Positions 21,419 through 59,876 of a stretch of DNA of 64,000 nt are shown one piece after another (position 1 is the first letter of the stretch; every line of letters starts with the position of its first letter). The position numbers and the translations under genes were made by a program. The DNA is taken from assembly GCA_943356415.1 (NCBI GenBank), contig CALREW010000001.1:357745-421744 (forward strand), read 5' to 3'. This stretch comes from Candidatus Nomurabacteria bacterium (GTDB taxonomy: Bacteria; Patescibacteriota; Minisyncoccia; Phycocordibacterales; SBAW01). The notes beneath the pieces are model-generated. The model made no database searches. It was not told where the DNA came from and was given only the letters and a program-made list of their open reading frames with translations.

Positions 21419-21570
21419 GATACGCGTTAGCGTCGCATAGAACAGTTGGGGTGTAAAGACGACATGCTCTATAACCCCGTCGAGGCACGATATGTTTCAG
21501 ATGCGTGATTTGAATTGGAGGTAATTGTGTGGCATTGTAGCCCTGGAATTGCCCGGAGGGAACCAAAATC

Positions 21571-22605
21571 ATGACTGTCTCTAAGCTGGCCATTGCGGCC
21601 AAAGACGTGGCTGCCGCTCGCGCGGTAACGCCGATCATCTCTGAGCTTCGGCGCCTCAACCTGGAGCTGCGTATCGAGCTGTATGTCGAAGGGTTCGCCG
21701 CTGGCGAGCATTTCGGCATCGCGCCCACCCTATCCTCAAAGAAGGGCGGCTCCCTCAATTTGGCAGAGGTGCTCAAGCGGCTCGGAGAGTTCGACCCGGA
21801 CGTGTTACTCGTCGGATGCTCAACGTCCGACGAAGGCCCTTCGATCGAGCGAGCGCTCATCGAATCCCTCAGTGATGAGCAGCGCCGCAAGATCAAGATT
21901 GTGGCCGTCCCCGACTACTGGCGCGCGGAACATCGGCTGGGTCTCTCTGTCGATTTGCTGCTCGTCATCGATGATGTCGCCAAGCAGTTGGCCGTGCAGA
22001 ATGCGGCCGCAGCCGAAGAGCCGGTAATCATCGGTGACTTCGTGGCATCGGACGTGGAGGTGCAGAAGTGGATCGCCGGGTCCTTTGAAAGTGCCCTGCC
22101 CAAGGGGCTCGATCTCAACAAGACGCTTCTGGTCGTGGGGCAAGGACTACCGTATCTCCCCGACCTCATGAGTCTCTCCGTCGACTGCCTCAAGGAGTCG
22201 CCCGGCTGGACATTGGTGCCACGTCTCTTCCACCCCAAGAAAAAGCCGGACGATGGCCTGGTGGAGACCTGGAACCGGCTCTCAGAGCGATACCGCGACC
22301 GCATCGTAGAGCTCGATGCGCACATCTTCTCAACCGATGCGCTCGCCGTTGCCTGCGGCGCGACACTCTCTGGCTTCTCGACGACACTGCGGTACGCCGC
22401 CGCAGCCGGCAAGCTCGCGCTCTCGGGTGACACCGAAGCGGTGCGTGCCGGACGTTTGAAATCCACCAGCATAGAGCTCTACCCGCCGGCGATAACTGGC
22501 GAAGCGCTCGCGGTGACGCGGGGTATCCCGCTGCACAGCATGGGGTCCACCGTGCGCCCCTTCAACCCAACACTCGCCGCCAAGCGCATCTTGGCCCTCA
22601 AGTGA
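21571..22605 (+). CDS. GT-B fold protein with C-terminal HP(K) motif (TagF/KpsC-S/sialyltransferase/WecB-like); paralog of 38404..39438
   Basis: Sits in a GC-rich island with GGAGGG 10 nt upstream of the ATG. Shares ordered motifs with 38404..39438 (N-terminal Rossmann start, AVxDYW, FHPKxKxDxxxTW, xADxxAxxxSxxLxxAAAGKLAL). Substrate not assignable. Confidence 0.4.
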   Translation: MTVSKLAIAAKDVAAARAVTPIISELRRLNLELRIELYVEGFAAGEHFGIAPTLSSKKGGSLNLAEVLKRLGEFDPDVLLVGCSTSDEGPSIERALIESLSDEQRRKIKIVAVPDYWRAEHRLGLSVDLLLVIDDVAKQLAVQNAAAAEEPVIIGDFVASDVEVQKWIAGSFESALPKGLDLNKTLLVVGQGLPYLPDLMSLSVDCLKESPGWTLVPRLFHPKKKPDDGLVETWNRLSERYRDRIVELDAHIFSTDALAVACGATLSGFSTTLRYAAAAGKLALSGDTEAVRAGRLKSTSIELYPPAITGEALAVTRGIPLHSMGSTVRPFNPTLAAKRILALK

Positions 22606-22635
22606 ACCCGCGGCCTCAGGCCGCCTACATCGCAG

Positions 22636-22662
22636 AACCCCGCCCTAACCGGCGGGGTTTCG
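22636..22662 (+). terminator. intrinsic terminator downstream of 21571..22605
   Basis: ccccgcc-ctaac-cggcgggg followed by tttcg. Confidence 0.5.
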
Positions 22663-22666
22663 CACA

Positions 22667-23263
22667 TCAAAAATATCGACGCAGCCTCCTCAATGCTCGT
22701 GTGAAAAACTGTAGTTTCTTATTTACAAAAACCAAACGCCAAGTTCCCCCTGCGTATTCGACGCAAGATATCGAGGCAAGTGCAAGTGATTGCCGCTCGT
22801 TGGTAAGCCCCATAAGAAGGTTTTGCAGAATAAGTTCATGCGCCACAATGCACACCGCCTCCTGCGAGTTCGTTTTCCGCTGTTCGTCAAGAACGGCCCC
22901 GACTCTTGAGAGTGCTTGCTCATAGGTCTCCTCCACCGATCGTGCCGCGGTCTCTCTGGCTCGAAGTGACTGTACCAGTGCCGCAAATGCTTTCCCCTCA
23001 AGATCGTGCACCGGTTCCCATTCACACAACCGCTCGTCAAGACGAAGTGGTACACCGCACGTTAGCGATATGAACTCAGCAGTTTCTTTTGCGCGCGCAT
23101 AGGGACTACTTATAATTGATTCGATATGTTTCCCTTTTAAAAACCGAGCCGCGGCACGGGCTTGTGCTTTACCCCACACTGAAAGTGCCGCTTCACGCGC
23201 TTGCAGAGGTGTGAGCCCCTCACGTGGAACACTTTCTCCATGCCGCACCAAATAAACTTTCAT
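22667..23263 (-). CDS. histidine phosphatase superfamily (phosphoglycerate-mutase-like) protein
   Basis: Begins MKVYLVRHGES (RHG catalytic motif). Start set to the internal Met so that it abuts the upstream cytidylyltransferase stop. Confidence 0.8.
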   Translation of the reverse strand: MKVYLVRHGESVPREGLTPLQAREAALSVWGKAQARAAARFLKGKHIESIISSPYARAKETAEFISLTCGVPLRLDERLCEWEPVHDLEGKAFAALVQSLRARETAARSVEETYEQALSRVGAVLDEQRKTNSQEAVCIVAHELILQNLLMGLTNERQSLALASISCVEYAGGTWRLVFVNKKLQFFTRALRRLRRYF

Positions 23264-23979
23264 GCGCGTCCTTGTGTCTTCATCAAATACTCGTACGTGC
23301 TCCATCGCTCAAGGGTGTCAATACCGTTTTCTGCATGCGGAAGTATAACGGGTACAATCTTTTTCCCTGAGAGACCCTTAAACGCGGTAACCGTGCGCGC
23401 CCAAAGCGCATCGACATAGCCCACATGCTTGTACGCTTTCGGCAATAAATACGTTGGCTTATTAAATGCTTCTTCCCCTTCAAGTGCGATAAGCGGTTGT
23501 AAATACCCTTCTTCATCGACTGAGTACATTTTGTAAGGCGATTGCTCGGGTTCAGTGACCGTGCGCGCAGAATCCGCATCAGGATGCTCAGAGAGAGCCT
23601 CGATAGTTGCATCAATATGCTCGACAGTTCTAAGCGGCGACGTAGGGCGCAACTGCACTAGCATGTCGGGTGTCTTTCCTTCGTGCTCCTCCATCCAAGA
23701 GAGAGCGTGCTCAAACACGAGATAGTCGCGCGCTTCGTCAGTCGACATTTCTGCCGGACGCGTGTAGGGCACCTCAGCGCCAAGCGAGCGAGCGAGCGCT
23801 GCTATTTCTTCGTCATCAGTCGAGACAATGACTCGGTCAAGATAGGCTGACTTTTTGGCCTCCTCTATCGTCCAGGCGATAAGCGGTTTGCCACAGAGTT
23901 CCTTGAGGTTTTTACGCGGAACACGCTTGCTACCCCCTCGGGCAGGGATAATCGCCGTCACCGTATACGACTGAATCAT
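23260..23979 (-). CDS. CMP-nonulosonic acid synthetase (acylneuraminate cytidylyltransferase family, NeuA/PseF-like)
   Basis: AIIPARGGSKRVPRKNLKELCGKPLIAWTIEEA...VIVSTDDEEIA matches the CTP_transf_3 signature. Confidence 0.85.
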   Translation of the reverse strand: MIQSYTVTAIIPARGGSKRVPRKNLKELCGKPLIAWTIEEAKKSAYLDRVIVSTDDEEIAALARSLGAEVPYTRPAEMSTDEARDYLVFEHALSWMEEHEGKTPDMLVQLRPTSPLRTVEHIDATIEALSEHPDADSARTVTEPEQSPYKMYSVDEEGYLQPLIALEGEEAFNKPTYLLPKAYKHVGYVDALWARTVTAFKGLSGKKIVPVILPHAENGIDTLERWSTYEYLMKTQGRA

Positions 23980-24051: not shown

Positions 24052-24393
24052 ATGGAAACCTACCGCGAAGAGAGGCCCTGGGGAGCCTTCGAACAATTCA
24101 CCCACAACGAGCCCTCAACCGTAAAGCTTATTCACGTATCTCCAACAGGTCGGCTCAGTCTGCAACGACACCAAAAACGTGATGAGTTTTGGAGGGTGGT
24201 TTCGGGCAGCCCTCGCATCACTATAGGAGACATTGTTACTATCGCTAACGTAGGTGACGAATTCTCAATTCCAAAAGGCACGATCCATCGCATCGAATCA
24301 CCAGATAGCGCCTCAGTGATACTCGAAATTGCAACGGGCGATTTTGATGAGAGTGATATCGAACGGCTCGAGGATACTTACGGTCGAGCGTAA
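24052..24393 (+). CDS. stand-alone mannose-6-phosphate isomerase cupin domain (type II PMI C-terminal domain family)
   Basis: EERPWGAFEQF...LQRHQKRDEFWRVVSG...DESDIERLEDTYGR reproduces the MannoseP_isomer cupin motifs. Confidence 0.75.
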   Translation: METYREERPWGAFEQFTHNEPSTVKLIHVSPTGRLSLQRHQKRDEFWRVVSGSPRITIGDIVTIANVGDEFSIPKGTIHRIESPDSASVILEIATGDFDESDIERLEDTYGRA

Positions 24394-25790
24394 GCATTAA
24401 GTCCCCTTGCAAGCTCTTCCCCGAGACGCCGTCCAGCGTTGCCGTCAAGCGGATCGAGCAGAAGCGCCTGTGCACGCTTCCGTGCGGCTTCATCGACATA
24501 CGAAGGAGTAAAACTTGCGAGCACTTCCTTGGCCAAATCCTGAGGCGTCGGGGCATAGGCGGCAGCTCCTGTTTCCATAAACGCTTCAAAGTGCGTGTAG
24601 CAGTCGTAATACCGCTTCACCGAGAGCCAATACGGCATATCTTTTCGTGCGCCATCGAATCCAACACAAATGGCGCGACGCCCAAAAGGAATCGCATCAA
24701 CGGCAACCGTCGAAGCTGCCGTTACCACTGCGTCGGCATAGGAAAGTGCGTGCATGTAGCGCTCCTCGCTGGTAAGGCCTTTCCCTTTCTCGTCGAGGTA
24801 CGACGTGTCTCCATCGAACACCACGTGAGTAAATTGGGCTAGTTTCTCTGGCGGCGGTTTAAATTTTGGATGCGCCCGCACCAGCACGCGCGCGCGAGGC
24901 CCGAAGGCGCCGTCGCGCGCCATGGCATTCATCACCTCAATCGCTCCCATTTCCTCAACAAAAAGGAACTCTCCCATTGCGCCGTAGAACACTAGTTTCT
25001 CCTCAGGCGAGAAACCGACACTCGCAAAAAACTGAACTTTAGGAATGAGTGTGTCGCGCGCTCGCAGATAGGCATCGTAATGAGGCAGTCCAACAATCGA
25101 CATCGGAACGCGAGATACACTTATCCCCTGGTATTTCGTAGCCATGTCCCGCAAAAAGACATTTTGAAGGAAAAAACGATCAGGGACCACGCGTAACAGA
25201 CCGTGACTTGAGAGATTGTCCCAGCTGCGAACCATTCCGAGGAGTGGGACCTTCTGCTGCCGCGCCGCGCGTGCCAGTGGAACGTCAAAGTTAAAGTTGG
25301 TGAGCGACAAACATACCAGCACGTCTGGCTGTAGGCTCCGTATACATTCAGTTGCCTCTTTATCTGAGGTGTAACGAATGATGAGAAACCGTACGAACCG
25401 TTTGAAAAGCGAGCTGTGTGCAAAAAGGGCCGTAAACACGCGTTTGCGATATGCCGACAAAAGACCGATGTCCCCGCGGGTATAGGCCCGCATCTTTGTC
25501 CACAGATTGGTGCGCGTCGGCAGGCCACTGCGCGCCAGAGACATAATCGCGCGTTCACGCGCTGTTTCCTTGCCACGCGCAAAGGTAACAACTTGCGCGT
25601 GCGCGCCGACCCGCGTGCGAATATCCTGGGCAATCGCTTCGTCAGCAATGATGGTCACCTCCGACGCCTCAAGAGTGCTAAAAAATGAATCGACAAATTC
25701 TTCGGTCAGTATATTCCTGGCGATAATTGCCTCTCCAACGGTTATAGCTACCCGCATACGCGTCAATGGTACTTCTTTTCTATCGTCCAT
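24378..25790 (-). CDS. hypothetical two-domain protein; C-terminal half is a third copy of the HP(K)-motif GT-B domain
   Basis: VRAHPKFKPPPEK...YADAVVTAASTVAVDAIPFGRRAI aligns with the FHPKFK...YADGVASGYSSTL...AGKLAL block of 38404..39438. Confidence 0.35.
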   Translation of the reverse strand: MDDRKEVPLTRMRVAITVGEAIIARNILTEEFVDSFFSTLEASEVTIIADEAIAQDIRTRVGAHAQVVTFARGKETARERAIMSLARSGLPTRTNLWTKMRAYTRGDIGLLSAYRKRVFTALFAHSSLFKRFVRFLIIRYTSDKEATECIRSLQPDVLVCLSLTNFNFDVPLARAARQQKVPLLGMVRSWDNLSSHGLLRVVPDRFFLQNVFLRDMATKYQGISVSRVPMSIVGLPHYDAYLRARDTLIPKVQFFASVGFSPEEKLVFYGAMGEFLFVEEMGAIEVMNAMARDGAFGPRARVLVRAHPKFKPPPEKLAQFTHVVFDGDTSYLDEKGKGLTSEERYMHALSYADAVVTAASTVAVDAIPFGRRAICVGFDGARKDMPYWLSVKRYYDCYTHFEAFMETGAAAYAPTPQDLAKEVLASFTPSYVDEAARKRAQALLLDPLDGNAGRRLGEELARGLNAYARP

Positions 25791-30368: not shown

Positions 30369-30644
30369 TTAGGTAGTACGCTTATTGCGTCGCCAAATTT
30401 TTATATACACGGCCATGCACAAAAAGAGGAACAGGAGGGCGAGTATGTACTTTATCTGGAGCGGCGCCTGATTAATGAGGGTGGCATACCAAAGCGCAAC
30501 GATATTCGCGATGAATTGTATGAGTAAGAGCCAAAAACTCAACCCTTCAACACTTTTTGTTTTGAGAGTCTTATATATCTGCGGTATGTAGCAGACGGTG
30601 AAAAGGAAGGTGGCGGTCCATCCAAGGACTAAAGCGAGTGACAT
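30369..30644 (-). CDS. SemiSWEET/PQ-loop small sugar transporter-like protein (3 TM)
   Basis: 91 aa. The first TM carries the CYIPQIYKTLKTKSVEGLS PQ-loop motif. Confidence 0.5.
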   Translation of the reverse strand: MSLALVLGWTATFLFTVCYIPQIYKTLKTKSVEGLSFWLLLIQFIANIVALWYATLINQAPLQIKYILALLFLFLCMAVYIKIWRRNKRTT

Positions 30645-30760
30645 GTGTGTTTTTACGGATTAGGTGCGCTCGAGTATGTAAACCTAGCACTATTCGTATG
30701 CATCATACCGTGTGGGTAAGCCTTAAACCAGTCTTGTAAATAGACCTTTGCGTCAGCAAC

Positions 30761-30788
30761 ATACAGACCGTTTAACTATTGTCTGTAT
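30761..30788. promoter_or_regulatory. perfect 8-bp inverted repeat with a 12-bp spacer upstream of the SemiSWEET gene
   Basis: atacagac-cgtttaactatt-gtctgtat. Confidence 0.3.
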
Positions 30789-30829
30789 ATAAAGGTTTCC
30801 GTTTTTAGAGAAAGCTGAGAAAGAGAAAT

Positions 30830-30849
30830 CCCGGGCCGTACGGCCCGGG
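30830..30849 (-). terminator. intrinsic terminator after the radical SAM gene
   Basis: cccgggcc-gta-cggcccggg, 30 nt after the stop. Followed on the minus strand by a U-rich run. Confidence 0.5.
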
Positions 30850-30878
30850 TTCCCCTGCTTCGGCTATGTCGCCGAGGC

Positions 30879-34756: not shown

Positions 34757-34757
34757 A

Positions 34758-35387
34758 TTACTGATCTACGGAAAAGAGAAAAAATCGGTGCGAGGGATCA
34801 TCTGCATATTTTTTCGAATAAATGAGCGTAAGTCCCACGGCCCTTGCTACTGCGAGGAACCGTTCGGTGGAATACCCTTTTTTGCCAAGTTCCCAATAGT
34901 GCTCACCATTAAAGGTGTGTTTTTTCCAGAAAAAAGGAATCTGAAAAAGGAATGCGGTGCGAGGGAGAAGCGGTAGCTTGCATACAAAAGAAAAAACCCA
35001 CCCAGGATGCGGAACCGAGATGACCACACTTTTCCTTGAAACTCGCGCCAGTTCACTCAACGCTTTCTCTACATCTTCAAAGCGAATATGTTCCAGAATC
35101 TCTGCGGCAAGCACAACATCATATGAAGCTGGCGGAAACGGGAGTGCTAGTATCGAACCAACAACATCCGGGTGCACATCTTCTGCAATATCGATAGTGG
35201 TAACGTCACACCCCTGCGCTTTAAGTTCGCGGGCCACAACCCCACTACCGATACCAATCTCAAGCACATTTTTTGGGTGTGTTTGCCATACCAAAGCCAT
35301 CTGGTGGAAATAAGAAATCCACCGCTCTGCGGAACGATAGGCCTTGCCTTCATAATGTGTCTTATCTACCTGTGGCGTATACGTCAT
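34758..35387 (-). CDS. class I SAM-dependent methyltransferase
   Basis: VLEIGIGSG...YDVVLAAEILEHI. Confidence 0.8.
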   Translation of the reverse strand: MTYTPQVDKTHYEGKAYRSAERWISYFHQMALVWQTHPKNVLEIGIGSGVVARELKAQGCDVTTIDIAEDVHPDVVGSILALPFPPASYDVVLAAEILEHIRFEDVEKALSELARVSRKSVVISVPHPGWVFSFVCKLPLLPRTAFLFQIPFFWKKHTFNGEHYWELGKKGYSTERFLAVARAVGLTLIYSKKYADDPSHRFFLFSVDQ

Positions 35388-36406: not shown

Positions 36407-36434
36407 ATCCCGTAGCCCATATAGTACTACTTGG

Positions 36435-37292: not shown

Positions 37293-37365
37293 GAAAATTG
37301 CACGCGCTCTGCGTGCACGCCCCAACACCCTCACAGCATACAACACCAAGATACTATGCGAAGTT

Positions 37366-41585: not shown

Positions 41586-41593
41586 AGCGTGAA

Positions 41594-49931: not shown

Positions 49932-50005
49932 GAAATATCGCTTATGGCTATGCGCCTATTCCACACTATTCTTAGGAAAAGACAAGTATCTTTCCTGGGT
50001 GGAGT

Positions 50006-51130
50006 TTACTCAATTTCGACGAACTTCCCGTCTTTAATGGTCTTGATCACGAACTCAATGTTGCGTATCTGATGCTTCTCGTTAAAGCTCACTTCCTCAG
50101 CGACAGTCCCTGGGATGCTCACATCAAGCAGAGCTTCACGAACACCCGCACGCTTCCCGTCTGTTTTGCGCAACGCTTCAATAAGCACATTCGTTGCGTC
50201 ATAAGCATTAAGTCCACTGAGACCCACTGGCACACCATTGTAAGTTGCTGCATACTTCTCTTGAAATACCTCTCCATTTTTAGTGGTTCGTCCGTGGGTG
50301 TAAATCACACCTTCAAGTGCGGACCCAAAATTTTCAACAAGAGTTGCATCCTCAATATCAGTAAGATTGAAGAATTTCACATCAAGACCAAGATCCTTTG
50401 CTTGCTTAAAGAATTTTGCTTTCGTCGCAGGATTAGCAAACACAGCGAAAATACCGTCGGAATGAATGCTTTTTAATTCAACAATCGATGTCCGGAAGTC
50501 TGAAAAGCCAAGAGGAAATTTGTATGACTTGCTGATGCTGAGTCCGTGCGCAGGAGCGCGCTCCTCAAAGAGAGCTGCCATTGTTGACCCAAACGTATCC
50601 TCGTCATGAAGTATCACTATGTTCTTGTTGCCGCTTGCAGCGATGTACGTTTCGAGCGCATCAACTTCACCTTGCTGTGGAAACCAAGTCGAAAACACAT
50701 AATCCGAGACGGTTCCATCATGGACCAAAGATTCCATTGCCATCGAAGGAGAAACAATAGCGACACGGCGTTCATTCATGACTGAAAAAACTCCCTGAAA
50801 CGCATCTCCCCACGTGGGCCCGATGACGGCAGCCACGTGATCGGCATCAACAAGTTTTATTGCGGCGTTCACAGTTGCCTTGGCATCACACGCCATATCC
50901 TCCACAACGAGCTCTATCTGTTTGCCGTTGATGCCACCTTTTTCATTAGCCTCAGCAACTGCGAGTTGGATTGCATGCAATTCTCCCTCACCCCAGGATG
51001 CACAATAGCCTGAAAGCCCTAAGGCAGCCCCAATCCGTATAGATTCCGCATCGCGCCGCGTCGTCCATGCCGCCGCTATGACCAAAATACCTATAATTAA
51101 CAATGCGCTTACCCATATGGCCTTTTTCAT
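50006..51130 (-). CDS. ABC transporter substrate-binding protein (LivK-like), second copy
   Basis: Same family as the binding proteins at 48783..49931 and 53759..54904. Confidence 0.8.
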   Translation of the reverse strand: MKKAIWVSALLIIGILVIAAAWTTRRDAESIRIGAALGLSGYCASWGEGELHAIQLAVAEANEKGGINGKQIELVVEDMACDAKATVNAAIKLVDADHVAAVIGPTWGDAFQGVFSVMNERRVAIVSPSMAMESLVHDGTVSDYVFSTWFPQQGEVDALETYIAASGNKNIVILHDEDTFGSTMAALFEERAPAHGLSISKSYKFPLGFSDFRTSIVELKSIHSDGIFAVFANPATKAKFFKQAKDLGLDVKFFNLTDIEDATLVENFGSALEGVIYTHGRTTKNGEVFQEKYAATYNGVPVGLSGLNAYDATNVLIEALRKTDGKRAGVREALLDVSIPGTVAEEVSFNEKHQIRNIEFVIKTIKDGKFVEIE

Positions 51131-51162
51131 ATGGCCATATAAAGCAACAAAACTTTAATTCT

Positions 51163-51246
51163 AGCAATATGATTGACAATTTATTTACATATAAACAAAG
51201 CAAATATTGACTATATTTGCCTATTTTGTTAATATTATTGTCAATT
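51163..51246. promoter_or_regulatory. AT-rich divergent promoter region with an inverted pair of TTGACAAT motifs plus a TTGACTAT half-site
   Basis: TTGACAAT at 51173-51180, TTGACTAT at 51207-51214, ATTGTCAA at 51237-51244. Confidence 0.4.
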
Positions 51247-51999
51247 ATGATAGATAAAGAACTAATTGCCACCCTTAAGGGGGTCGGATTCGATGAAAAG
51301 GAAGCTCGTGTGTACTTGGCTACCCTCGAGCTTGGCGACGCTCAGGTCTCCCAAATAGCAGAAAAGGCGGAGCTGAAGCGTCCCATTGTCTACTTCGTAC
51401 TAGACCGCCTCAAAGCACGCGGCTATGTGCAGCATTTTGGCTCAGGCAACGTAAAACGGTTCTCCGCTGTTGAACCAAGCCGTCTTCTTGCAACATCGCA
51501 GACGGCGGTCGAGGAGTTTCGCTTTATGTTGCCTCTTATTCATGCGCTTCAAGACAAAGGCAAAGGAAAACCACGCATCGAATATTTTCAAGGCCTCGAT
51601 GCGGTCCTTTCTATATACGGGCAACTTGAGAAAGAGAAAGATGTTCGTTTCGTGACGAATGTACAAAAGCTGACGCCTATAATGGCAAAAGAAATAGAGA
51701 TGTGGGCCCGCAATTATGAAAGCAAGCGTAAAGATACTCGTGCGCACAAAGTACTGGTCTCAGACAACCAAACCGACACTGCATGGGCCACGCGCGTTGT
51801 AAAAGGAAGTGCTGATGTGCGCATCCTCCCTGGTCAACAAACTGAGATGGACTTCTCTATCAGCAAGGGAATGCTGTGTATTACTTCGTTTGATCCCCTC
51901 TTTATCGTGGTTATCCACTCTGAAAAAATAGCTCGCTCGTCTGCTCTACTTTTTGATTTAGCGTGGGAGAGTTCAAAGAAGGTCTCTCTTAAGAAATAA
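51247..51999 (+). CDS. TrmB-family HTH transcriptional regulator
   Basis: N-terminal wHTH LGFDEKEARVYLATLELGDAQVSQIAEKAELKRPIVYFVLDRLKARGYV. Confidence 0.6.
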   Translation: MIDKELIATLKGVGFDEKEARVYLATLELGDAQVSQIAEKAELKRPIVYFVLDRLKARGYVQHFGSGNVKRFSAVEPSRLLATSQTAVEEFRFMLPLIHALQDKGKGKPRIEYFQGLDAVLSIYGQLEKEKDVRFVTNVQKLTPIMAKEIEMWARNYESKRKDTRAHKVLVSDNQTDTAWATRVVKGSADVRILPGQQTEMDFSISKGMLCITSFDPLFIVVIHSEKIARSSALLFDLAWESSKKVSLKK

Positions 52000-52000
52000 C

Positions 52001-52870
52001 TTAATTCATTCTGAATTTGCCGAGAAACCCCTGAGGCCTATACAGCATGAACAAAACAAGAATCGCTCCGTAGGTCACCTGCCTCATTTGCGCTGCTACG
52101 TCCGATGGAAAGCCTAAGAAACGCAGCGCTTCAGGAAGCACTATCAGAAAGAAAGCGCCAGCAAGTGCTCCTTCGTGTGAGGCAAGGCCGCCAAGAATGA
52201 TAATGGCGAGAATAAAGATAGATTCATTGAGCGAGAAACTCGATGGATCAATAAACGTGATGTAGCTCGCGAGCAATGCCCCAGCGAGCGCTGCGAGCAT
52301 TGCCGCAATAACAAACACCACGAGCTTGAAGTACGGGGTCGCGTAGCCAAATACTTGCACCATATTCTCATCCTCGCGTATCGCAGTGAGCACTCGACCA
52401 AAAGACGAACGCGTGAGGTACCAACAAACTCCGTAGACAATCGCACCAAGGATGATGCAGAGAATAAGAAACATAACGTTGTCAGAAAACGAAATGCCAA
52501 AAAGTTCCGGTCTATGAATACCCGGTATTCCTAGAGGACCACGCGTTAAACTCTGCCAATTGAGAAGGATGCTGAAGATAATGACGTTAAACCCAAACGA
52601 CCCGAGCGCATAATAGTCACCACGAAAGCGTGAAAGAACGGCGCCGATAACCAGCGCCACAACACCAGAAATAACCATACCAAGCAGCATTGCAGTGAAA
52701 AATCCGAACCCCTGATTGATCATCAAGAGCGCGGTGCCGTATGCACCGATGCCATAAAAAGCAGCGTGGGTAATGGAGAGAAGCCCGGCGTAACCGACGA
52801 TTAAATCGAGCGAAAGCCCAAGCATCGCGTAAATAGAAACCAGAATTGCTATGTGCAGTAGATACTCCAT
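52001..52870 (-). CDS. livM: branched-chain amino acid ABC transporter permease LivM
   Basis: Polytopic ABC-type permease of the LivH/LivM family. Confidence 0.8.
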   Translation of the reverse strand: MEYLLHIAILVSIYAMLGLSLDLIVGYAGLLSITHAAFYGIGAYGTALLMINQGFGFFTAMLLGMVISGVVALVIGAVLSRFRGDYYALGSFGFNVIIFSILLNWQSLTRGPLGIPGIHRPELFGISFSDNVMFLILCIILGAIVYGVCWYLTRSSFGRVLTAIREDENMVQVFGYATPYFKLVVFVIAAMLAALAGALLASYITFIDPSSFSLNESIFILAIIILGGLASHEGALAGAFFLIVLPEALRFLGFPSDVAAQMRQVTYGAILVLFMLYRPQGFLGKFRMN

Positions 52871-53737
52871 TTATTTTGAGAGAATACCTTTCGGTCGGAA
52901 TAGCAAAAAAGCGATCAGCACCGCAAACGCAATGGCATCTTTCCACTCCCCTGCAAACTGCCACGCCCCAAGATTTTCAATAAGAGCCAAGAGGAATGCG
53001 CCAAGGACGGCTCCGTAGATAGAACCTATACCGCCGATGATGGCGGCAATCACTCCTTTAAGAAGGAGGCTCATCCCCATCAAAGGCTCGATGCCGGTAT
53101 CAAACCCAACGGCAATACCCGACAGCCCACCAATCGCACCTCCTACCGCAGCGACGATGCCAAGAATCCTGGGACTGTTTATACCGACAATACTTGCAAC
53201 CGTACTGTCATCGGCGACAGCACGCACCGCTTTGCCAAAGAGCGTTCTCGACAGAACGATACCCACCCCCGTCATAATGACGAGTCCCGATATAAAGATG
53301 AGCGCTTGGACATCCGTTATGACACCGCCTGCAATATTGAACGTACGCGTACTGCCGATATTTTTGGAGAGCGTCTGGAATTGACTCGAGAAAATAATGG
53401 CAATAACCGCTTGGATGATGGTGAGTACGCCAAGCGAGGCAATAAGCAATATCGTTCCCGATGCTTTTCTTTCGCGCAGTTTGCGATAGATAAATCGCTC
53501 AACCAAAAAGGCAAGCAGACCCGCGGTAGCGACGCCAATACCAATCGCAAGCCACACAGGTAGATCAATCTGTTTGTAGGACCAATAGGTGGCGTAGCCT
53601 CCAACAGCAATAAGCGCCCCGTACCCGAGATCGAAAAACTTCGCCGTGCTGTACATCAGCGTGAAGCCCAACGCGATAAGCGTATAGATAGCCCCGGCGA
53701 TAACGGCATTTAGGAGTATCTGGACGAGAATATCCAT
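52871..53737 (-). CDS. livH: branched-chain amino acid ABC transporter permease LivH
   Basis: Polytopic ABC-type permease of the LivH/LivM family. Confidence 0.8.
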   Translation of the reverse strand: MDILVQILLNAVIAGAIYTLIALGFTLMYSTAKFFDLGYGALIAVGGYATYWSYKQIDLPVWLAIGIGVATAGLLAFLVERFIYRKLRERKASGTILLIASLGVLTIIQAVIAIIFSSQFQTLSKNIGSTRTFNIAGGVITDVQALIFISGLVIMTGVGIVLSRTLFGKAVRAVADDSTVASIVGINSPRILGIVAAVGGAIGGLSGIAVGFDTGIEPLMGMSLLLKGVIAAIIGGIGSIYGAVLGAFLLALIENLGAWQFAGEWKDAIAFAVLIAFLLFRPKGILSK

Positions 53738-53758
53738 GTACTTCCTAGCCTACCATTC

Positions 53759-54904
53759 CTACTTCACTATCTCCGCAGAGCCATTGTGCACGAGATGCAC
53801 CTCATACTGCGCGGTCTTTAGATCTCGATCGGCGTCAAAACTGATTTCAGAGAGCGCTACTCCTTCGGTGTAATTAACGGCAGCAAGCGCATCTCTAACC
53901 TTCTGAGAATCAGTGCCGACCGAACTTATAACCGAGGCGAGGAGGCGGAACGCATCGTATCCAAGCACCGAGTAGATATTGATGTCGGTCCCGGTGCCTT
54001 GTTTAAGTTTCGTTGCGAACGCCTCTGGCTGGTTAAACTTTCCAACGCTATACATGGCACCTTCAGCTTCTGGCACGGAGGTGAACTCCTTGAGATCAAG
54101 TGCATCTCCACCAAAACGTACAGCGCTAAGACCGATAGCCTTCGCCTGTTTTACGGCTACAACACCTGAGCCAGGATACAGCGCCATGTAGAGCGCTTCA
54201 GGATCTGCTGCTTTAATTTTCGACAGCTCGGTGCGCATATCGGTTGCTGTTTGAGTCACCCCTTCATTCTCGACAACTTCTCCCCCAAGCTCCTTGAAAC
54301 GCGCCGCAAAGACGTCACTGAGACCCTTGCCGTAATCATTGTTTACGTAAAGTACTGCAGCTTTGTGTTTGCCAAGCGTGTTGTAAATATATTCTGCAGC
54401 AAACTTTCCCTGGAAGGCGTCGGACGGATACGTGCGGAACACATACTCGCCTGCTTTCGTTAGTCCTGGTGCAGACGCCCAAAATACCGTGGGCACATGA
54501 TTCGCTTGTGCGATTGGGAGTCCCGGACCGGCCGCAGATGAGCACAGTGGGCCAATAATTGCAGCAACCTTATCGAGCGATACCAACTTATTAAATACAT
54601 CTGCACCGTCCTTGGCACATTTATCATCTTCAAAAATAACTTCGACCTGTCTGCCACCAATACCACCAGCGTCGTTTATTTCCTTTTGTGCAAGCTCAAT
54701 GCCAGCCTTTGTTTGCTCACCCAAGCTTGCAGCCTCCCCCGTAAGAGGCAGCGACGCACCGATGCGAATAGGCCCTGTTTCCGTAGGAGCTTTTTTAGTA
54801 GCGACGCCAAACCAAATAACCGCCGCTACAATAACCACTGCACCCAGGCCTAACCAAAGATTTTTTGACATACAAGCTGTTACTGCTTCCCTATAAATAG
54901 ACAC
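53759..54904 (-). CDS. ABC transporter substrate-binding protein (LivK-like), third copy
   Basis: Type I periplasmic-binding-protein fold with N-terminal anchor. Confidence 0.8.
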   Translation of the reverse strand: MSIYREAVTACMSKNLWLGLGAVVIVAAVIWFGVATKKAPTETGPIRIGASLPLTGEAASLGEQTKAGIELAQKEINDAGGIGGRQVEVIFEDDKCAKDGADVFNKLVSLDKVAAIIGPLCSSAAGPGLPIAQANHVPTVFWASAPGLTKAGEYVFRTYPSDAFQGKFAAEYIYNTLGKHKAAVLYVNNDYGKGLSDVFAARFKELGGEVVENEGVTQTATDMRTELSKIKAADPEALYMALYPGSGVVAVKQAKAIGLSAVRFGGDALDLKEFTSVPEAEGAMYSVGKFNQPEAFATKLKQGTGTDINIYSVLGYDAFRLLASVISSVGTDSQKVRDALAAVNYTEGVALSEISFDADRDLKTAQYEVHLVHNGSAEIVK

Positions 54905-54969
54905 GGTTACCCTAGCTCAAACCAGCATACCAAAGGAAGGGCACAAGCAAAGGTTCAAGAAACGTATTC

Positions 54970-56235
54970 TTATTGCGCCTTGAGAACCTGCCTGAGGCTC
55001 GAGTATTTATTACCCGGGTCCCAGAAAAGATACCCATCGAGACCCGCATCGTGCGCTGCCTGTATTTGGTTAGCCACCATAGTCGGGGTGTAGTCCACGG
55101 GGTAGTCGAAATCCTGAAGCCACGGACGAATTTTACTCTTATCGTATGCCGGCTTTAGATACACCGCAGGAGTCGTCGTACCGATGCGCGAGAAAGCGGC
55201 TCCTGCAATGCCGGTCTGTGTTGCAGTCGTACGACGCACTGCAGCATCAAGCACAAATTTCATAAGGTCATAGGTATGCGCGTTCGGATCTTTCCAACCG
55301 TTGAAGCCGCTTGGGTAATGCGATGGATACACCATCGGTGCAATGTAATCGAAGTACGGCAGAGCACGTTCAAGCACCTGTCCGATATTAAGATCGTCAG
55401 TGTTTGTTGTTGTCATGCCAAAAAGGTCAGCCGACATCTTTACTCCCGTATCCTTCAGATTTGCATGTAGATAACTAAAAAATTCTTCAACCGCTTCTTG
55501 TTTGGTCTTTCCTGGAGAAAGGGTATACACCGCATCGGCCATATTTCCGTCAGAAGGAAAACGTATGTAATCGAAATTTATTTCATCAAAACCAGTTGCG
55601 TACGACGCCTTTGCAAGTTTCACCACGCGTTCCCAATAGGGCTTTGCGCCGACCTGGATAAAAGAGAGCCCTTTACGATCTTTCCACGGACCGCCGTGAC
55701 TCGCACTTTGCACTGCAAGTTCTGGATGGGCCTTCGTGTAGGTTGGATCCTGGAAGACGGTGACACGTCCAATGACATAAATATTTTTGCTGTGGAGCAT
55801 TTCTATAAAAGAGCGCATGTCTTTGGCGCCACAGGCATCTGATACCCAGTCCTTGAGGTCCGGGTCATCCGGCGTAAAGGATATTTTGCCGGTGTAATCC
55901 TTGATGTCGATAACCACCGCATTAAGTTCCGTTGTATCTATCAAATCAACGAGCTGTTTTCTAAAATTTGGAGTGCCAACAACACACTGCGACATGTAGA
56001 CGGCTTTTACATTGGTCGGCACACCGACGTGCGCTGCAACTGAGACAACAGGCACGTCACTTTCTTCACTTGAAGTAGCGGTGCTGCTTGCGACATCGGC
56101 ATCACCTCGCACGCTCACCGAGGAGAGTGCGGGAATGACAAACTCAAATGCGAGAAAACACACCGTCGCTACAACGACGACGCCTGTGAAGAGAAGTTTT
56201 TTACCCGACCCGAGGGCGATTTGTTTGCGTTTCAT
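54970..56235 (-). CDS. putative glycoside-hydrolase-like TIM-barrel protein (DUF4015/GHL family) with N-terminal membrane anchor
   Basis: N-terminal TM then ...VKAVYMSQCVVGTPNF...LNAVVIDIKDYTGKISF...IYVIGRVTVFQDP pattern of this family. Confidence 0.45.
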   Translation of the reverse strand: MKRKQIALGSGKKLLFTGVVVVATVCFLAFEFVIPALSSVSVRGDADVASSTATSSEESDVPVVSVAAHVGVPTNVKAVYMSQCVVGTPNFRKQLVDLIDTTELNAVVIDIKDYTGKISFTPDDPDLKDWVSDACGAKDMRSFIEMLHSKNIYVIGRVTVFQDPTYTKAHPELAVQSASHGGPWKDRKGLSFIQVGAKPYWERVVKLAKASYATGFDEINFDYIRFPSDGNMADAVYTLSPGKTKQEAVEEFFSYLHANLKDTGVKMSADLFGMTTTNTDDLNIGQVLERALPYFDYIAPMVYPSHYPSGFNGWKDPNAHTYDLMKFVLDAAVRRTTATQTGIAGAAFSRIGTTTPAVYLKPAYDKSKIRPWLQDFDYPVDYTPTMVANQIQAAHDAGLDGYLFWDPGNKYSSLRQVLKAQ

Positions 56236-56455
56236 TCGAGGTCGGTTGCGCTTCGCGCGGGCGGTTATCTACAAAAAAATCTTGGGTGTGCGCCGCACCG
56301 CGGGCAAGCACTTCACGCCGCAGGAAAAAACCAAGCGCCGCGATTCCAAGACCTCCGAGAACAAGAAGTGTCGTTCGCCACGACCCAGGAAGTCCAAGAT
56401 ATGGCAACGCTGCGATTGCGAGCCCGAGCAATATCAGCGTCACTTCCTTCGACAT
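56201..56455 (-). CDS. small hypothetical membrane protein (2 TM)
   Basis: ORF trimmed to the internal Met (MSKEVTLILLGLAIAALPYLGLP...). Confidence 0.3.
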   Translation of the reverse strand: MSKEVTLILLGLAIAALPYLGLPGSWRTTLLVLGGLGIAALGFFLRREVLARGAAHTQDFFVDNRPREAQPTSNETQTNRPRVG

Positions 56456-56576
56456 ATTCGCAGTATACCCCATGAGATAAAGGGGCGGCCATTTGTGGAA
56501 TACCTGTCGATCGTCAGATGCCGGTGCAGAGGGAGGCGATTGCCTGCCTATCCACGGGGTATAGCAGAGCCGCGCA

Positions 56577-57257
56577 CTACTGCGCCTCAACAATAACGAC
56601 AAATTCCCCTCGCTGCTTCTCAGGGGTCTCTTCCAGGTATGCCAGGAGCTCCCCTGCAGTTCCTACCCGACTTTCCTCATGAAATTTGGTGAGTTCTCTG
56701 TAGATACCAATTCGGCGCTCCCCACATTGGGTAGCGAGCGACTGCAACGCTTTCATAATCCGGTGTGGAGACTCATAGAAAATGCTTGTCCGCTCATCCG
56801 TGGCAATAGTCTTAAAAAGCGTCTCTCTCCCCTTCTTCTGGGGCAAAAAGCCATAAAACGTAAATGTTGAAACGCGAAGTCCCGCGATAGAAAGCGCCGC
56901 GGCAAGCGCCGAAGGACCTGGTATTGCCTCGATAATCACATCGTCTCCAAGGGCTTCCCGTGTCGCTCCTACCAACTCTCCCCCTGGATCAGAAACCCCT
57001 GGCGTCCCGGCGTCAGTCACCAACGCAAGATGTTTCCCTTCTTCAAGCAACTCGACAATTTTCTTTACCTTACTTGCACCACTATTTGCATGAAATGAGA
57101 GCGTCGGCGTGGTAATAGCAAAATGGGAGAGCAATTTCTTCGTGACACGCGTGTCCTCACAAAGAATGATGTCAGCCGCTTTCAAGACCGAAAGAGCTCG
57201 GAGCGTAATGTCTTCGAGATTTCCTATGGGGGTCGCAATGACGGAGAGTTTGGACAT
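56577..57257 (-). CDS. rsmI: 16S rRNA (cytidine1402-2'-O)-methyltransferase RsmI
   Basis: LSVIATPIGNLEDITLRALSVLKAADIILCEDTR tetrapyrrole-methylase-fold signature. Confidence 0.9.
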   Translation of the reverse strand: MSKLSVIATPIGNLEDITLRALSVLKAADIILCEDTRVTKKLLSHFAITTPTLSFHANSGASKVKKIVELLEEGKHLALVTDAGTPGVSDPGGELVGATREALGDDVIIEAIPGPSALAAALSIAGLRVSTFTFYGFLPQKKGRETLFKTIATDERTSIFYESPHRIMKALQSLATQCGERRIGIYRELTKFHEESRVGTAGELLAYLEETPEKQRGEFVVIVEAQ

Positions 57258-57266
57258 GGAGGTGCC

Positions 57267-57956
57267 TTACCTTTTGCGAGCGACGATTACGAGCGAATCT
57301 ACTGATGTGTCAGTGTCGCGCTCCAGACTCTTGTATTCACGCTTCTCAACCAGTTCAAAGAGTTCCTCGAATGTTGGTGAGAGATAATCGTTCATTGAAT
57401 GTGGCGGATAGGTCACTACAACCTTTCCTCCGTAGAGCGATGTCTTTATGACCTCTTTTCCATTCTCAACAGCTCGTATGTCTGCGACGGGATGCGGCAA
57501 AATAAGAATAAGTTCTCCACCTGACCTTAGTACTCGCGCTGCTTCACGATAAGGCGCGTCTGTTTTTTCAACATAATGGAAAGAAAAACGCCCAAGAACA
57601 TAATCTTGCGATGCGTCCGGTACCGGCAGATGTTCCCAATCGCCAAGTTGAGCAATAGCTGTATCTCCGGTGACCTTCTGTGCTGCTTGAACCATCGTAA
57701 GAGACGGATCGACGCCAAGCACTTGTTTAAAATGCATTTCGTCTCGATACGTCACGAGCTCTGCTCCCGCACCACAACCAACATCGAGAAGTGATTTTTC
57801 TTGTGGATTTTTTAGATGCTCGGTAAGGAATTCTTTACCAAGATCTCTAACGTTCTTGAAAAACGCTTCTTTGCCTTCAATGTAGGCATCTCCTATGTGA
57901 TTGTACTGCCTCGTTATGGAATCAGGAGAGGATGATTTTGGAAGCTCTTGCGACAT
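57267..57956 (-). CDS. class I SAM-dependent methyltransferase
   Basis: LLDVGCGAGAE...YVLGRFSFHYV. Confidence 0.75.
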   Translation of the reverse strand: MSQELPKSSSPDSITRQYNHIGDAYIEGKEAFFKNVRDLGKEFLTEHLKNPQEKSLLDVGCGAGAELVTYRDEMHFKQVLGVDPSLTMVQAAQKVTGDTAIAQLGDWEHLPVPDASQDYVLGRFSFHYVEKTDAPYREAARVLRSGGELILILPHPVADIRAVENGKEVIKTSLYGGKVVVTYPPHSMNDYLSPTFEELFELVEKREYKSLERDTDTSVDSLVIVARKR

Positions 57957-58038
57957 AGCGTATGTATAGCAATCAGGCTCTCTAAAAACAACACGGTCGG
58001 CCCTTCGTCAGGCCGACCGTGGTGCACGTGTTGTTCGT

Positions 58039-58743
58039 TCAGCCGAACTTCCAGCCCAGGCGAACCTTGAACTTCTGCCCGGCACTTCCCGTCACCGGAT
58101 CGGTGGCGATCATAAGCGCCCGGGTGTAGAGATCCTCGGCGAGGCCGATCATCCCACGACGGCGATGCAGAAGCGCGGCGCGCAGGAGCACCCGGCAGAA
58201 CTGCCGGAGCGCCTGGACGTTGTCTTGCTCGTTCTCGACATCTCGCCGTAGCCGAAGCGCGCCGTTGAGGTAGTCGAGCACCTCTTCATCTGACCGTCCG
58301 GAGTAACAACAAACCTCTGCCATACCGATGCGCAGCAGCGCTTCGCTGTGCGGGACAGGATTCTTCATAAGCCCCGCGAGTAGGAAGTTCTCGGCGACGA
58401 AGAAGTTGCGGTGGGCGATCATGACCGTGCCGATGACGTCGCACTGGCCGTCACTGAGCCGGTCAATATTTCCACCGATAATCCTGATTGTCCGTTGCAC
58501 CTCGCCCACTGCCAGGCTGAGGAACCCTGGGACGATGCGATACGAGTACCACACCGAAGCGCGCTTCACAGCGGCATCTTTGTGTCTGCCAGCCACCTCG
58601 AGCTCCTTCGCCTCGCGAAGCCCTTCGATCAAGCCACCGAGCGTGTGGTCCCAGATCTTCTGCCGCAGGCTAACCTGCGCCTCAGGCGGCGGTTGAGTCG
58701 CCATGTTGCCTCTCCAAGCTACAGGCCTCCATAGGCCTTCCAC
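58039..58743 (-). CDS. hypothetical protein (GC-rich island)
   Basis: 234 aa. No recognisable family. C-terminus ...KFKVRLGWKFG. Confidence 0.35.
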   Translation of the reverse strand: MEGLWRPVAWRGNMATQPPPEAQVSLRQKIWDHTLGGLIEGLREAKELEVAGRHKDAAVKRASVWYSYRIVPGFLSLAVGEVQRTIRIIGGNIDRLSDGQCDVIGTVMIAHRNFFVAENFLLAGLMKNPVPHSEALLRIGMAEVCCYSGRSDEEVLDYLNGALRLRRDVENEQDNVQALRQFCRVLLRAALLHRRRGMIGLAEDLYTRALMIATDPVTGSAGQKFKVRLGWKFG

Positions 58744-58888
58744 GCAACATTATGTCACAAAATATTTAATAATCAATATATCGCGTTTTCTCTTTACTAA
58801 CTCACTTTTCTCTGCGATTGTAATGCGCGGAACCGGTAGAGCCGGCTTTTTGTAACCCTGGATCACTGCTAAAGAAAGGCAGGGGCGC

Positions 58889-59794
58889 ATGCTCCGTAGA
58901 AATACCCCAAACAGCGACATCGCCCACCACGCAACTCGCGTAGGGCCGATGAAGATGGGTGCGGTGTCCGTCGGCGCATCGCTCTTCCCGGGACGTATCG
59001 ATGGCGTACAGACAAACTGGACTCTCGCGCGGCTCGAACTTGATGCTCCAGGCGTCGAGCGCGTCGTGCGCCTGCGTCAGGTTGCCGAAGCGCTGGGGCT
59101 GAAAACCATATGGTCCCCCTCCCCAGTGAAGTTCAACGGCCGCATCTGCTCGCGCAGCGAGCTGAAGATCCGCGTCTCGATTGACGCCACGCAAGACATC
59201 GCCATCATGCGTGGCATGGAAGCCGATGGGTGCCTCATCGCTCCGACCGAATCGCTCATCATGAGCGTCGGTGGATGTGCGGTCGTGGTCATGGAGTATC
59301 AGGGGCGCGTGGTCGCCGCGCATGCGGGACTCAAGTGCTTCTACGACCACGAGTTGGCGATCTCGGGCACGAAGACCCCAAACCGCGAACATGAAAGCGT
59401 CGTCGAGGCGGCAGGCCGAGCACTCACAACCGGTGGCGCTGCGCTTGACCCGACACAACTTCATGTGCGCGTACTGTTTCCGCTTTCGCGGAAAGTGCAC
59501 ACGCATTCGCTGAAGGACACGGTGCACGGAGCAAACAACGAACGGCTCCATCAACACTTCATCAAGAAGTGGGGCACCGGCTGTGGTGTGCGGCTCGAGC
59601 AGGATGGCCACACGCTCTCCTTCGATACGCTCGCCATCGTCCGAGCCCAGTGCGAGAGGTATTTCAAACTCGACCCGCTACAAGTCGAGCGCGTGGGGCC
59701 CTTCGCGGATGCCATTCCCTACGCCCATCACACTCGTCTTCCGGGCGAAGCGGGCAAGATGCGCAACCTGGTCGTCATCAAGAACTTGGGCTGA
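58889..59794 (+). CDS. hypothetical protein, possibly divergent PgeF/YfiH (DUF152, laccase-domain) family
   Basis: DGCLIAPTE...GGCAVVVMEYQGRVVAAHAGLKC parallels the YfiH DALIT...ADCLPVL...VAAAHAGWRG core. Otherwise weak. Confidence 0.35.
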   Translation: MLRRNTPNSDIAHHATRVGPMKMGAVSVGASLFPGRIDGVQTNWTLARLELDAPGVERVVRLRQVAEALGLKTIWSPSPVKFNGRICSRSELKIRVSIDATQDIAIMRGMEADGCLIAPTESLIMSVGGCAVVVMEYQGRVVAAHAGLKCFYDHELAISGTKTPNREHESVVEAAGRALTTGGAALDPTQLHVRVLFPLSRKVHTHSLKDTVHGANNERLHQHFIKKWGTGCGVRLEQDGHTLSFDTLAIVRAQCERYFKLDPLQVERVGPFADAIPYAHHTRLPGEAGKMRNLVVIKNLG

Positions 59795-59816
59795 CTTCTC
59801 GGTCACCCCGCACACC

Positions 59817-59854
59817 GCCGGCCCGAACTTCGGGGCCGGCGGTCGTCTTTTTAT
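59817..59854 (+). terminator. strong intrinsic terminator
   Basis: gccggccc-gaacttc-ggggccggc followed by ggtcgtctttttat. Confidence 0.7.
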
Positions 59855-59876
59855 GGAGCGCGCTTGAAGTGGTAGC

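Follow-up and report, generated by a model that had tools for sequence, protein, structure and literature searches.

The 64,000-nucleotide (nt) stretch analysed here, the window, is part of contig CALREW010000001.1 (positions 357,745 to 421,744 of the forward strand) of Candidatus Nomurabacteria assembly GCA_943356415.1, a bacterium of the Paceibacteria (Patescibacteria, or candidate phyla radiation, CPR). It contains four short islands of high guanine plus cytosine (GC) content with six genes, which an initial annotation, made from the letters alone, had read as recent horizontal acquisitions from a high-GC donor. That they were acquired agrees with empty sites in related genomes and with an insertion or deletion between strains; that they are recent does not hold for island 4, and no donor was found. 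The explanation that we favour, and regard as an even call, is that the islands are six autonomous accessory units of a coherent GC-rich gene pool circulating in Paceibacteria, which were added to a conserved backbone and whose composition is kept high. Below, the genes are called X1 (island 1), rSAM (a B12-radical S-adenosylmethionine gene, island 2), I3a and X2 (island 3), and I4a and I4b (island 4), and names of the type L009 denote related or independent loci. Whole-window GC is 0.510. In both the 500-nt and the 200-nt profile it rises to 0.60-0.67 at four places, whose edges are sharper than 100-200 nt. The steps in the 200-nt profile and the genes, with their GC and their GC at third codon positions (GC3), are:

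~21500-22660: GC step of island 1
~30800-32470: GC step of island 2
~37300-39450: GC step of island 3 (37300-38100 and 38300-39300, with an AT-richer spacer at 38225-38322)
~58000-59870: GC step of island 4 (58000-58600 and 58800-59870, with an AT-richer spacer at 58705-58888)
21571-22605, plus strand: X1, GC 0.621, GC3 0.762
30879-32456, minus strand: rSAM, GC 0.626, GC3 0.789
37445-38224, minus strand: I3a, GC 0.613, GC3 0.769
38404-39438, minus strand: X2, GC 0.620, GC3 0.791
58039-58704, minus strand: I4a, GC 0.619, GC3 0.757
58889-59794, plus strand: I4b, GC 0.614, GC3 0.732

The 50 native window genes used for comparison have a GC of 0.495±0.020 (maximum 0.541) and a GC3 of 0.502±0.046 (maximum 0.603), against which the island genes reach z-scores of 6.0-6.7 for GC and 5.0-6.3 for GC3. 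Their oligonucleotide signature deviates too: the GC-normalised dinucleotide distance delta* between islands and native DNA is 92 (null 30±9, maximum 60), the tetranucleotide correlation is 0.665 (null 0.90±0.017, minimum 0.85), and TA is depleted (0.44 versus 0.74 in native DNA). The sliding-window GC, GC3 and tetranucleotide checks proposed with the initial annotation thus place the islands outside the range of the native window genes or the null rather than inside the background, so that its observation of four GC-rich islands in DNA of about 50% GC stands. In signature, the islands resemble one another at least as much as native chunks resemble other native chunks. Relative synonymous codon usage (RSCU) gives the same grouping, with correlations of r = 0.48 between window islands and native genes, 0.87 between islands 1-3 and island 4, 0.87 between native genes of the window and those of relatives, and 0.91 between window islands and the GC-rich genes of L018, L019 and L020. 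A further gene, at 24378-25790, had been described as of intermediate GC and thus as an older acquisition. Its GC of 0.541 (z = 2.4) lies at the top of the native range and its GC3 of 0.554 (z = 1.1) is no outlier, which leaves that suggestion without support from GC3.

Long open reading frames (ORFs) are present on both strands of every island. Differences from a second strain, found in Logan assemblies of the SRR247509xx samples, lie mostly at third codon positions, which shows that the annotated coding frames are real and the opposite ORFs are shadows; for X2, the differences at codon positions one, two and three number 1, 4 and 9, supporting the minus frame. An artefact, either chimeric metagenome assembly or GC-rich structured RNA mistaken for genes, might be suspected since the source is evidently a metagenome-assembled contig and both island strands carry long ORFs, but its probability is practically nil. 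Chimeric assembly is ruled out by the same junctions in independent assemblies (L001 and L002, both at 100%; L003 and L021 from other samples). An ENA contig matches window positions 11571-23650 and a Logan contig positions 38354-40071, each at 100% identity, and second-strain contigs from several samples span islands 2, 3b and 4 at 92-98% identity. Structured RNA is ruled out by the codon-position pattern of the differences, and the proteins give confident folds; no Rfam or transfer RNA (tRNA) match, and no ribosomal RNA gene, was found in the window. The GC-rich genes of this genome are mis-annotated in public calls: at L021 5140-6270, equivalent to window positions 38377-39507 on the plus strand, a 376-amino acid antisense shadow ORF is called in place of X2, and the exact X2 and I3a proteins are absent from the NCBI-derived calls of the source genome.

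The island genes form separate units. Upstream of each coding sequence, which is GC-rich, lies a region rich in AT, in most cases with a Shine-Dalgarno (SD) motif, and a strong terminator hairpin follows. An SD motif, scored as GGAG or GAGG at -17 to -4, precedes four of the six island genes and one of 42 native window genes (Fisher p = 3.7e-4). When related loci are included, the counts become 11/13 GC-rich genes and 2/77 native genes (Fisher p = 1.4e-10), and the association between SD and high GC3 holds in the window and in three other loci, which extends the earlier remark that the gene at 21571 has an SD motif and most native genes do not. The motifs are GGAGG in X1 (10-14 nt upstream of the ATG), AAGGAG in rSAM, GAGGTG in X2, which starts with TTG, and an SD-like GGAGAGG in I4a. 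The TTG starts given for X2 and I3a agree with the N-termini of their homologues. In rSAM, the AAGGAG precedes an ATG at 32456 that gives a protein of 525 amino acids, the same length as called in a relative, and the longer ORF reaching a TTG at 32549 is probably not used. GC-rich hairpins occur at most 70 nt downstream of all six island genes, so that the GC-rich terminator noted for each island is found at every gene; these have GC stems of 8-11 bp followed by a T-run, and a minimum free energy of -29 to -38 kcal/mol per 70 nt, compared with mostly -7 to -20 kcal/mol for native 3' regions. Terminators outside island 3 are:

22610-22660: island 1, two GC-rich hairpins between the convergent X1 and HisPhos genes, fold -34.2 kcal/mol
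30817-30855, minus strand: island 2, an 8-bp all-GC stem followed by a T-run
57984-58020: terminator of I4a
59814-59852: terminator of I4b

Most native genes lack an SD motif; many of them overlap the gene before them, or show a TATAGT-, TATACT- or TATAAT-like box at only 6-15 nt from the ATG (examples lie upstream of native genes at 8886, 20235, 27195, 57956 and 62714), a pattern that suggests widespread leaderless or coupled translation in this organism. According to a published survey, the anti-SD motif is missing from about half of the Parcubacteria 16S rRNAs (PMC9297842). Our literature search found no description of GC-rich, SD-led genes in Patescibacteria.

Islands 1 to 3 lie in a glycan locus of about 9400-43800 that encodes YfhO, PMT_2, glycosyltransferases (GT) of types GT2, GT4 and GT47, NeuB, NeuA, TagF-like proteins, a flippase and a PQ-loop protein. 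Island 4 lies outside this locus, among housekeeping genes in the order DUF4015, RsmI, methyltransferase, I4a, I4b, Mur ligase, ATE, Fasciclin and Band_7. An Adlerbacteria locus, L009, has the gene order GT1, UDP-glucose dehydrogenase (UDPG-DH), GT4, GT, GT4, TrwB, RsmI, Mpl (the Mur ligase gene) and ATE. There, 17 nt separate the island 3 flanks UDPG-DH and GT4, and 137 nt the island 4 flanks RsmI and Mpl; island 4 is likewise missing from L010 and L011. Locus L021 of the second strain, 96-98% identical to the window, lacks I3a and the entire NeuB-X1-HisPhos-NeuA segment of island 1, with other sugar genes at that place. The presence/absence comparison proposed earlier therefore identifies the islands as accessory additions to a conserved backbone. 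The closest relatives of the Mur ligase found in a contig scan belong to Paceibacterota (56%), Adlerbacteria (52%) and other Patescibacteria, none of them close.

The addition or loss of a single unit can be seen in island 3, where L021 lacks exactly 957 bp, comprising I3a and its AT-rich upstream region. I3a is also the sole island gene bounded by direct repeats, which are 92-94 nt long, 95-97% identical and 957 nt apart:

37366-37457, minus strand: repeat R2, made up of the final 13 nt of coding sequence in I3a with its 3' untranslated region (UTR) and terminator (37368-37400)
38225-38322, minus strand: AT-rich spacer, which lies upstream of I3a within the 957-bp indel and contains a promoter-like site, TTGATT-17-TATTAT
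38323-38416, minus strand: repeat R1, made up of the final 13 nt of coding sequence in X2 with its 3' UTR and terminator (38326-38357)

L021 has a single hybrid copy where the window has R1 and R2. Either the unit was gained through recombination at the 3' end of X2, or it was lost by way of the repeats. I3a encodes 259 amino acids and belongs to a family of about 250-residue proteins, of which a word-index search of 5.8 billion proteins returned 24 clusters at 36-51% identity (the best at 45-51%); the two homologues carrying a source name are both from Patescibacteria. A weak GtrB-like PHROG match (E = 5.5e-4) suggests that I3a is possibly GT-A-like. The closest homologue (51%) lies at L033 7637-8546, in a Patescibacteria contig of 32.8% GC, where it is split into two overlapping ORFs by a frameshift or a sequencing error; its GC is 0.41-0.47 and that of its flanks 0.30-0.33, a difference of 10-15 GC points.

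X1 (island 1) and X2 (island 3) are paralogues of 344 amino acids each with 26% identity (E = 9e-21). A full HMMER search of 1.84 billion cluster representatives found 275 representatives of their family of about 340-residue proteins, and a 6-sequence alignment recovered five metagenome loci. The word-index search with X1 returned X1 itself only; its closest relative anywhere is P0009 (50% identity), and the closest X2 homologue reaches 42%. Neither X1 nor X2 has a Pfam or NCBIfam match at E <= 0.01. The AlphaFold model of X1 (predicted local distance difference test score, pLDDT, 94) has a GT-B fold with two Rossmann-like halves, and the top 50 Foldseek matches of the X model in the PDB are all UDP-GlcNAc 2-epimerases or close homologues (WecB, NeuC, MnaA and CapG; E down to 1.6e-10, template modelling (TM) score 0.52-0.64), with no sialyltransferase among them. 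Like NeuC and WecB, the family has near-invariant His-Pro (H221-P222) and acidic residues and NeuB/NeuA neighbours; unlike them, it matches no Pfam or NCBIfam family, and its identity to the solved 2-epimerase structures is 12-16%. The initial annotation had called these proteins HP-motif transferases, and while the HP motif is indeed nearly invariant, a GT-B fold nearest to 2-epimerases does not establish transferase activity.

In L007, a contig of uniform 61% GC, P0009 keeps the order NeuB-X-HisPhos-NeuA-G470 that surrounds X1, which makes X1 a regular cassette member and not a stray insert. X1 lies between NeuB (20318-21418) and HisPhos/NeuA and is the only GC-rich gene in the window copy of the cassette. 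Since X genes adjoin NeuB- or NeuA-like genes in the window and in L007, L026 and L027, they are likely part of nonulosonic-acid pathways, and X1 and X2 can be regarded as putative NeuC-like enzymes or transferases. The NeuB proteins of the window and of L007 (2337-3437) are 85% identical, with gene GC3 values of 0.55 and 0.80, respectively, and the other cassette genes (X1, HisPhos, NeuA and G470) show 44-57% identity between the two loci.

The rSAM protein of island 2, which contains the cluster motif CPFGCRFC (CxxxCxxC), passes the Pfam cut-offs for PF02310 (46.8 bits, cut-off 32.1) and PF04055 (94.8 bits, cut-off 29.5), in line with its earlier description as a B12-radical SAM enzyme; no NCBIfam equivalog was found at its cut-off, and the PHROG match is to an unannotated family, phrog_21079. 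The window and second-strain alleles differ synonymously at 88 codons and non-synonymously at 17, with 14, 10 and 91 differences at codon positions one, two and three, and the gene is under purifying selection. The two alleles are 91-96% identical (7% apart) and both GC-rich, whereas the native genes next to rSAM on its upstream side show 99-100% identity between strains. The alleles of L021 and L023 are the same, and no third allele was present in the 90% cluster; unpolarised substitution counts, 40 and 51, do not separate amelioration from equilibrium. Directly downstream of the island lies a gene for a 91-amino acid PQ-loop (SemiSWEET-like) membrane protein (30369-30644), which is kept beside the flippase in L027 with 64% identity.

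Island 4 suggests that the high GC content is not a passing state at this site. I4b, of 301 amino acids, lies directly upstream of Mpl (59877-61304), and orthologues at the same position in L020, L019 and L018 have 62%, 43% and 36% amino-acid identity. They are GC-rich (GC3 0.73-0.81, or 62-64% GC), and their flanks have a GC3 of 0.50-0.58. I4a, of 221 amino acids and without a family match, also has GC-rich positional counterparts, in L020 (45% identity) and, as a weak match, in L018. We compared fourfold-degenerate sites at conserved residues of the I4b orthologues from the window, L020, L019 and L018. Identity at these sites ranged from 0.33 to 0.45 across pairs, with 0.31-0.32 expected if randomised: the window pairs with L019 and L018 were at 0.33 (0.31 expected at saturation), and the pair with L020, at 0.447 versus 0.307, falls short of saturation. 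GC at fourfold sites (GC4) is nevertheless 0.69-0.78 in I4b of all four lineages, compared to 0.49-0.65 in Mpl, RsmI, Band_7 and DUF4015. The composition of island 4 thus survives saturation, which points to an equilibrium or to continual renewal. Between the strains, block 58000-60200 is 99.5-100% identical and lies between stretches of 78-85%. Because this exchanged block consists of island 4 and about 320 nt of the native-GC 5' part of Mpl, the exchange partners must already have had both compositional classes.

The AlphaFold model of I4b (pLDDT 84) supports the earlier PgeF-like assignment by fold, the top 18 PDB matches all being YfiH, PgeF or YlmD (E 1e-8 to 3e-6, TM 0.47-0.67), but sequence profiles do not: I4b had no match in Pfam or NCBIfam, four members had no Pfam match at E <= 10, PF02578 included, and a PDB profile search gave chance-level matches only. 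C130 and H145, within GGC..(x15)..AAHAG, are invariant and resemble the Cys/His core of the family, and the Mpl/MurC-like neighbour is a further likeness, so that we consider I4b a putative protein of the YfiH/PgeF (DUF152) fold. It differs in being about 50 residues longer than the solved structures and in occurring in only a handful of genomes; the word-index search found homologues only in syntenic relatives. The methyltransferase gene at 57267-57956, between RsmI and I4a, has the lowest GC3 in the window (0.387), shows only 90% identity between strains and is missing from this position in L018 and L019, which makes the RsmI-Mpl interval a hotspot for both GC-rich and GC-poor additions.

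Where the islands came from was approached through their homologues. No homologue above about 50% identity was found outside close relatives, either among 1.84 billion cluster representatives (X family) or among 5.8 billion proteins (X1, I4b and I3a). All homologues with a recoverable source name or genomic context point to Patescibacteria, and to glycan-type loci for the X family. High GC is not intrinsic to these protein families, since X2-like genes in L024, L025, L026 and L028 and I3a-like genes in L029 and L030 have a host-like GC3. Of the genes present in L027, a relative with a comparable glycan locus, the X2-like one is highest in GC; it has an SD motif and starts with TTG. No support was found for an origin from phages or mobile elements: I4b, the X family and I3a have no relatives in IMG/VR, and the only PHROG matches are those of I3a and rSAM mentioned above.

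We find it unlikely that the islands are four independent recent acquisitions from a high-GC donor, whose GC, SD motifs and terminators have not yet ameliorated. Such an origin would explain the sharp, gene-sized GC steps, the alien oligonucleotide signature, the SD motifs within an SD-poor genome, and the presence or absence of I3a and of the island 1 cassette between near-identical or related strains; moreover, the GC and GC3 of the islands agree with those of genes in high-GC Paceibacteria, for example L007 (RSCU r = 0.77). However, the dinucleotide signature of L007 does not fit the islands (delta* 114) and L007 genes lack SD motifs, neither search found a homologue above about 50% identity outside close relatives, the two rSAM alleles are both GC-rich, and island 4 occupies the same site with equally high GC in four lineages, in a block that, when exchanged between strains, already combined it with native-GC Mpl. 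I3a, and possibly X1, may be recent transfers; for island 4 this account fails. Similarly improbable, in our view, is an explanation without transfer, in which the islands are a native regulatory class of SD-led monocistronic genes held at high GC3 by selection on mRNA structure, mRNA stability or the decoding regime, the remaining genes being leaderless or coupled with a GC3 of about 0.5. The tight association between SD and high GC3, the narrow GC range of six unrelated genes (0.613-0.626), the single codon usage across genomes, the stationary GC4 of the I4b orthologues despite saturation, the purifying selection on island genes, and the anti-SD loss that marks initiation in this group as unusual all fit such a class. 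It does not account for host-like GC3 in X2 and I3a homologues of other Patescibacteria, for island sites that are empty in outgroups or for the I3a indel, and no mechanism is known by which selection would shift GC3 by 25 points in a small-genome and presumably slow-growing symbiont. Somewhat more credible, though still tentative, is the idea that in this Paceibacteria clade one small genome maintains two stable gene classes, an SD-less or leaderless bulk with a GC3 of about 0.5 and an SD-led, terminator-bounded monocistronic minority with a GC3 of about 0.75 and shared codon usage. The minority would retain its composition at orthologous sites in lineages with fully randomised synonymous sites; this composition would then be a gene-class-specific equilibrium, set by selection or by strongly localised GC-biased gene conversion, and not a fading donor imprint.

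In the explanation we favour, the six units would have been added to an SD-poor Paceibacteria backbone of about 50% GC as members of one GC-rich gene class common to related genomes, instead of as four fresh imports from an unrelated high-GC organism. Turnover would occur on all time scales: I3a would be gained or lost at the strain level through the 92-94-nt repeat of the X2 3' end and terminator, rSAM would turn over by allele replacement, and island 4 would have resided at the RsmI/Mur-ligase site since before the four lineages diverged. Four units would serve the surface-glycan locus, as two GT-B enzymes tied to NeuB/NeuA genes, a B12-radical SAM enzyme and possibly a GT-A-like protein, and two would adjoin peptidoglycan-recycling genes, namely the PgeF-fold protein beside the Mur ligase, together with I4a. 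The donor pool may consist of other Patescibacteria, among whose lineages the units would be exchanged as blocks; either such exchange combined with GC-biased gene conversion, or selection on the SD-led class, might hold their GC3 near 0.75. Several points weigh against this explanation. X1, X2 and I3a have no close donor or exchange partner (<=50%), hence their transfer is inferred and not observed, and the islands have no flanking integrase, transposase or tRNA (the whole window is free of tRNA genes, and no integrase or transposase domain was among the called genes of the window and its relatives). That these genes are monocistronic and have 5' UTRs may account for part of the association of SD with high GC: the SD is retained in I3a homologues even where their GC3 is host-like and neighbouring genes lack it, so that the motif is partly a property of such genes. 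Native regions recombine and yet stay ordinary in GC, and recombination-linked GC bias alone is therefore insufficient for these genes. Finally, the identity matrices of I4b and Mpl are incongruent, L020 grouping with the window in the first and with L018 in the second, which makes repeated independent replacement at this locus conceivable; and as the case for persistence comes from one locus with two adjacent genes in four lineages, with partial support from L027, it is a lead rather than a result.

Reading GC-rich islands as transferred DNA is an ordinary kind of finding. In the model of Lawrence and Ochman, transferred genes with atypical GC, GC3 and codon usage are reportedly expected to ameliorate. 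The islands resemble classical acquired islets in their gene-sized deviation of GC3, signature and codon usage, in the empty outgroup sites, in the strain-level presence or absence and in lying within a hypervariable surface-glycan locus. As a rule, alien DNA is richer in AT than its host, whereas these islands are GC-richer; they also differ from islets in lacking integrase, tRNA or insertion-sequence flanks and an identifiable donor, and in the unameliorated state of island 4 despite saturated synonymous sites among four lineages. Integron cassettes, too, are single-gene units, and the adjacent X2 and I3a share a 92-94-nt 3' element with inverted repeats, at which one unit, I3a, is precisely gained or lost. 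Unlike cassettes, the islands have promoter-like regions and terminators of their own and are dispersed instead of arrayed. An integron was rejected because the shared element is the X2 3' end with its terminator and is not attC-like; there is no IntI or attI in the window, and no integrase-like gene was called in the window or its relatives. GC-biased gene conversion is said to have been proposed by Lassalle et al. in 2015 to explain recombination-associated GC3 elevation in bacteria, and the window shares with that pattern a GC3 that varies among genes of one genome, mosaic recombination, and island blocks that coincide with recombination tracts. The difference of about 25 GC3 points, confined to specific genes, is far above what was reported there, and other recombining native segments are not GC-rich.

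What is unusual is the combination of GC-richer aliens in a CPR genome, a uniform SD and terminator class, the lack of a detectable donor, and non-amelioration at a syntenic site. Atypical GC is routinely taken as a sign of recent transfer, whereas here the GC-rich state is found at the same site in four lineages past saturation, beside genes of ordinary genomic GC. If this were true genome-wide, it would offer a natural contrast within one genome for what sets bacterial GC, be it mutation, selection or biased gene conversion. Methods that detect transfer by composition would date such genes wrongly, and gene callers already mis-annotate them, as the X2 shadow ORF illustrates. The analysis also flags two uncharacterised envelope families in CPR bacteria, the NeuB/NeuA-linked GT-B family and the PgeF-fold family beside the Mur ligase.

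The window and the second strain were compared over positions 52000-63600 (with L003) and 30448-44646 (with L021). Blocks of 99-100% identity alternate with blocks of 64-86%, the latter including 52000-55200, 57200-57900 and 60200-60800, a mosaic that indicates intense homologous recombination with divergent lineages in the Paceibacteria population. A segment of about 2 kb (49986-52005) with two low-GC genes (50006-51130, 374 amino acids; 51217-51999, 260 amino acids) lies inside a branched-chain-type ABC transporter cluster and is missing from the second strain, in which L003 positions 2092-2128 join the flanks directly. The gene for a TrwB/TraG-like (VirD4-type) coupling protein at 45351-47249 is part of the conserved backbone, with 66-71% identity in L009 and L010, and shares a 90%-identity cluster with its counterpart in L018; no obvious conjugative element surrounds it. 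The L018 contig, when extended into the glycan locus, contained no further GC-rich genes. Small GC-rich genes with a GC3 of 0.81-0.87, SD motifs and hairpin terminators are present at L019 6092-6505 and at L018 13688-13942 (equal to L031 388-642); they have no family match, and their sites, flanked by conserved genes, are empty in the window.

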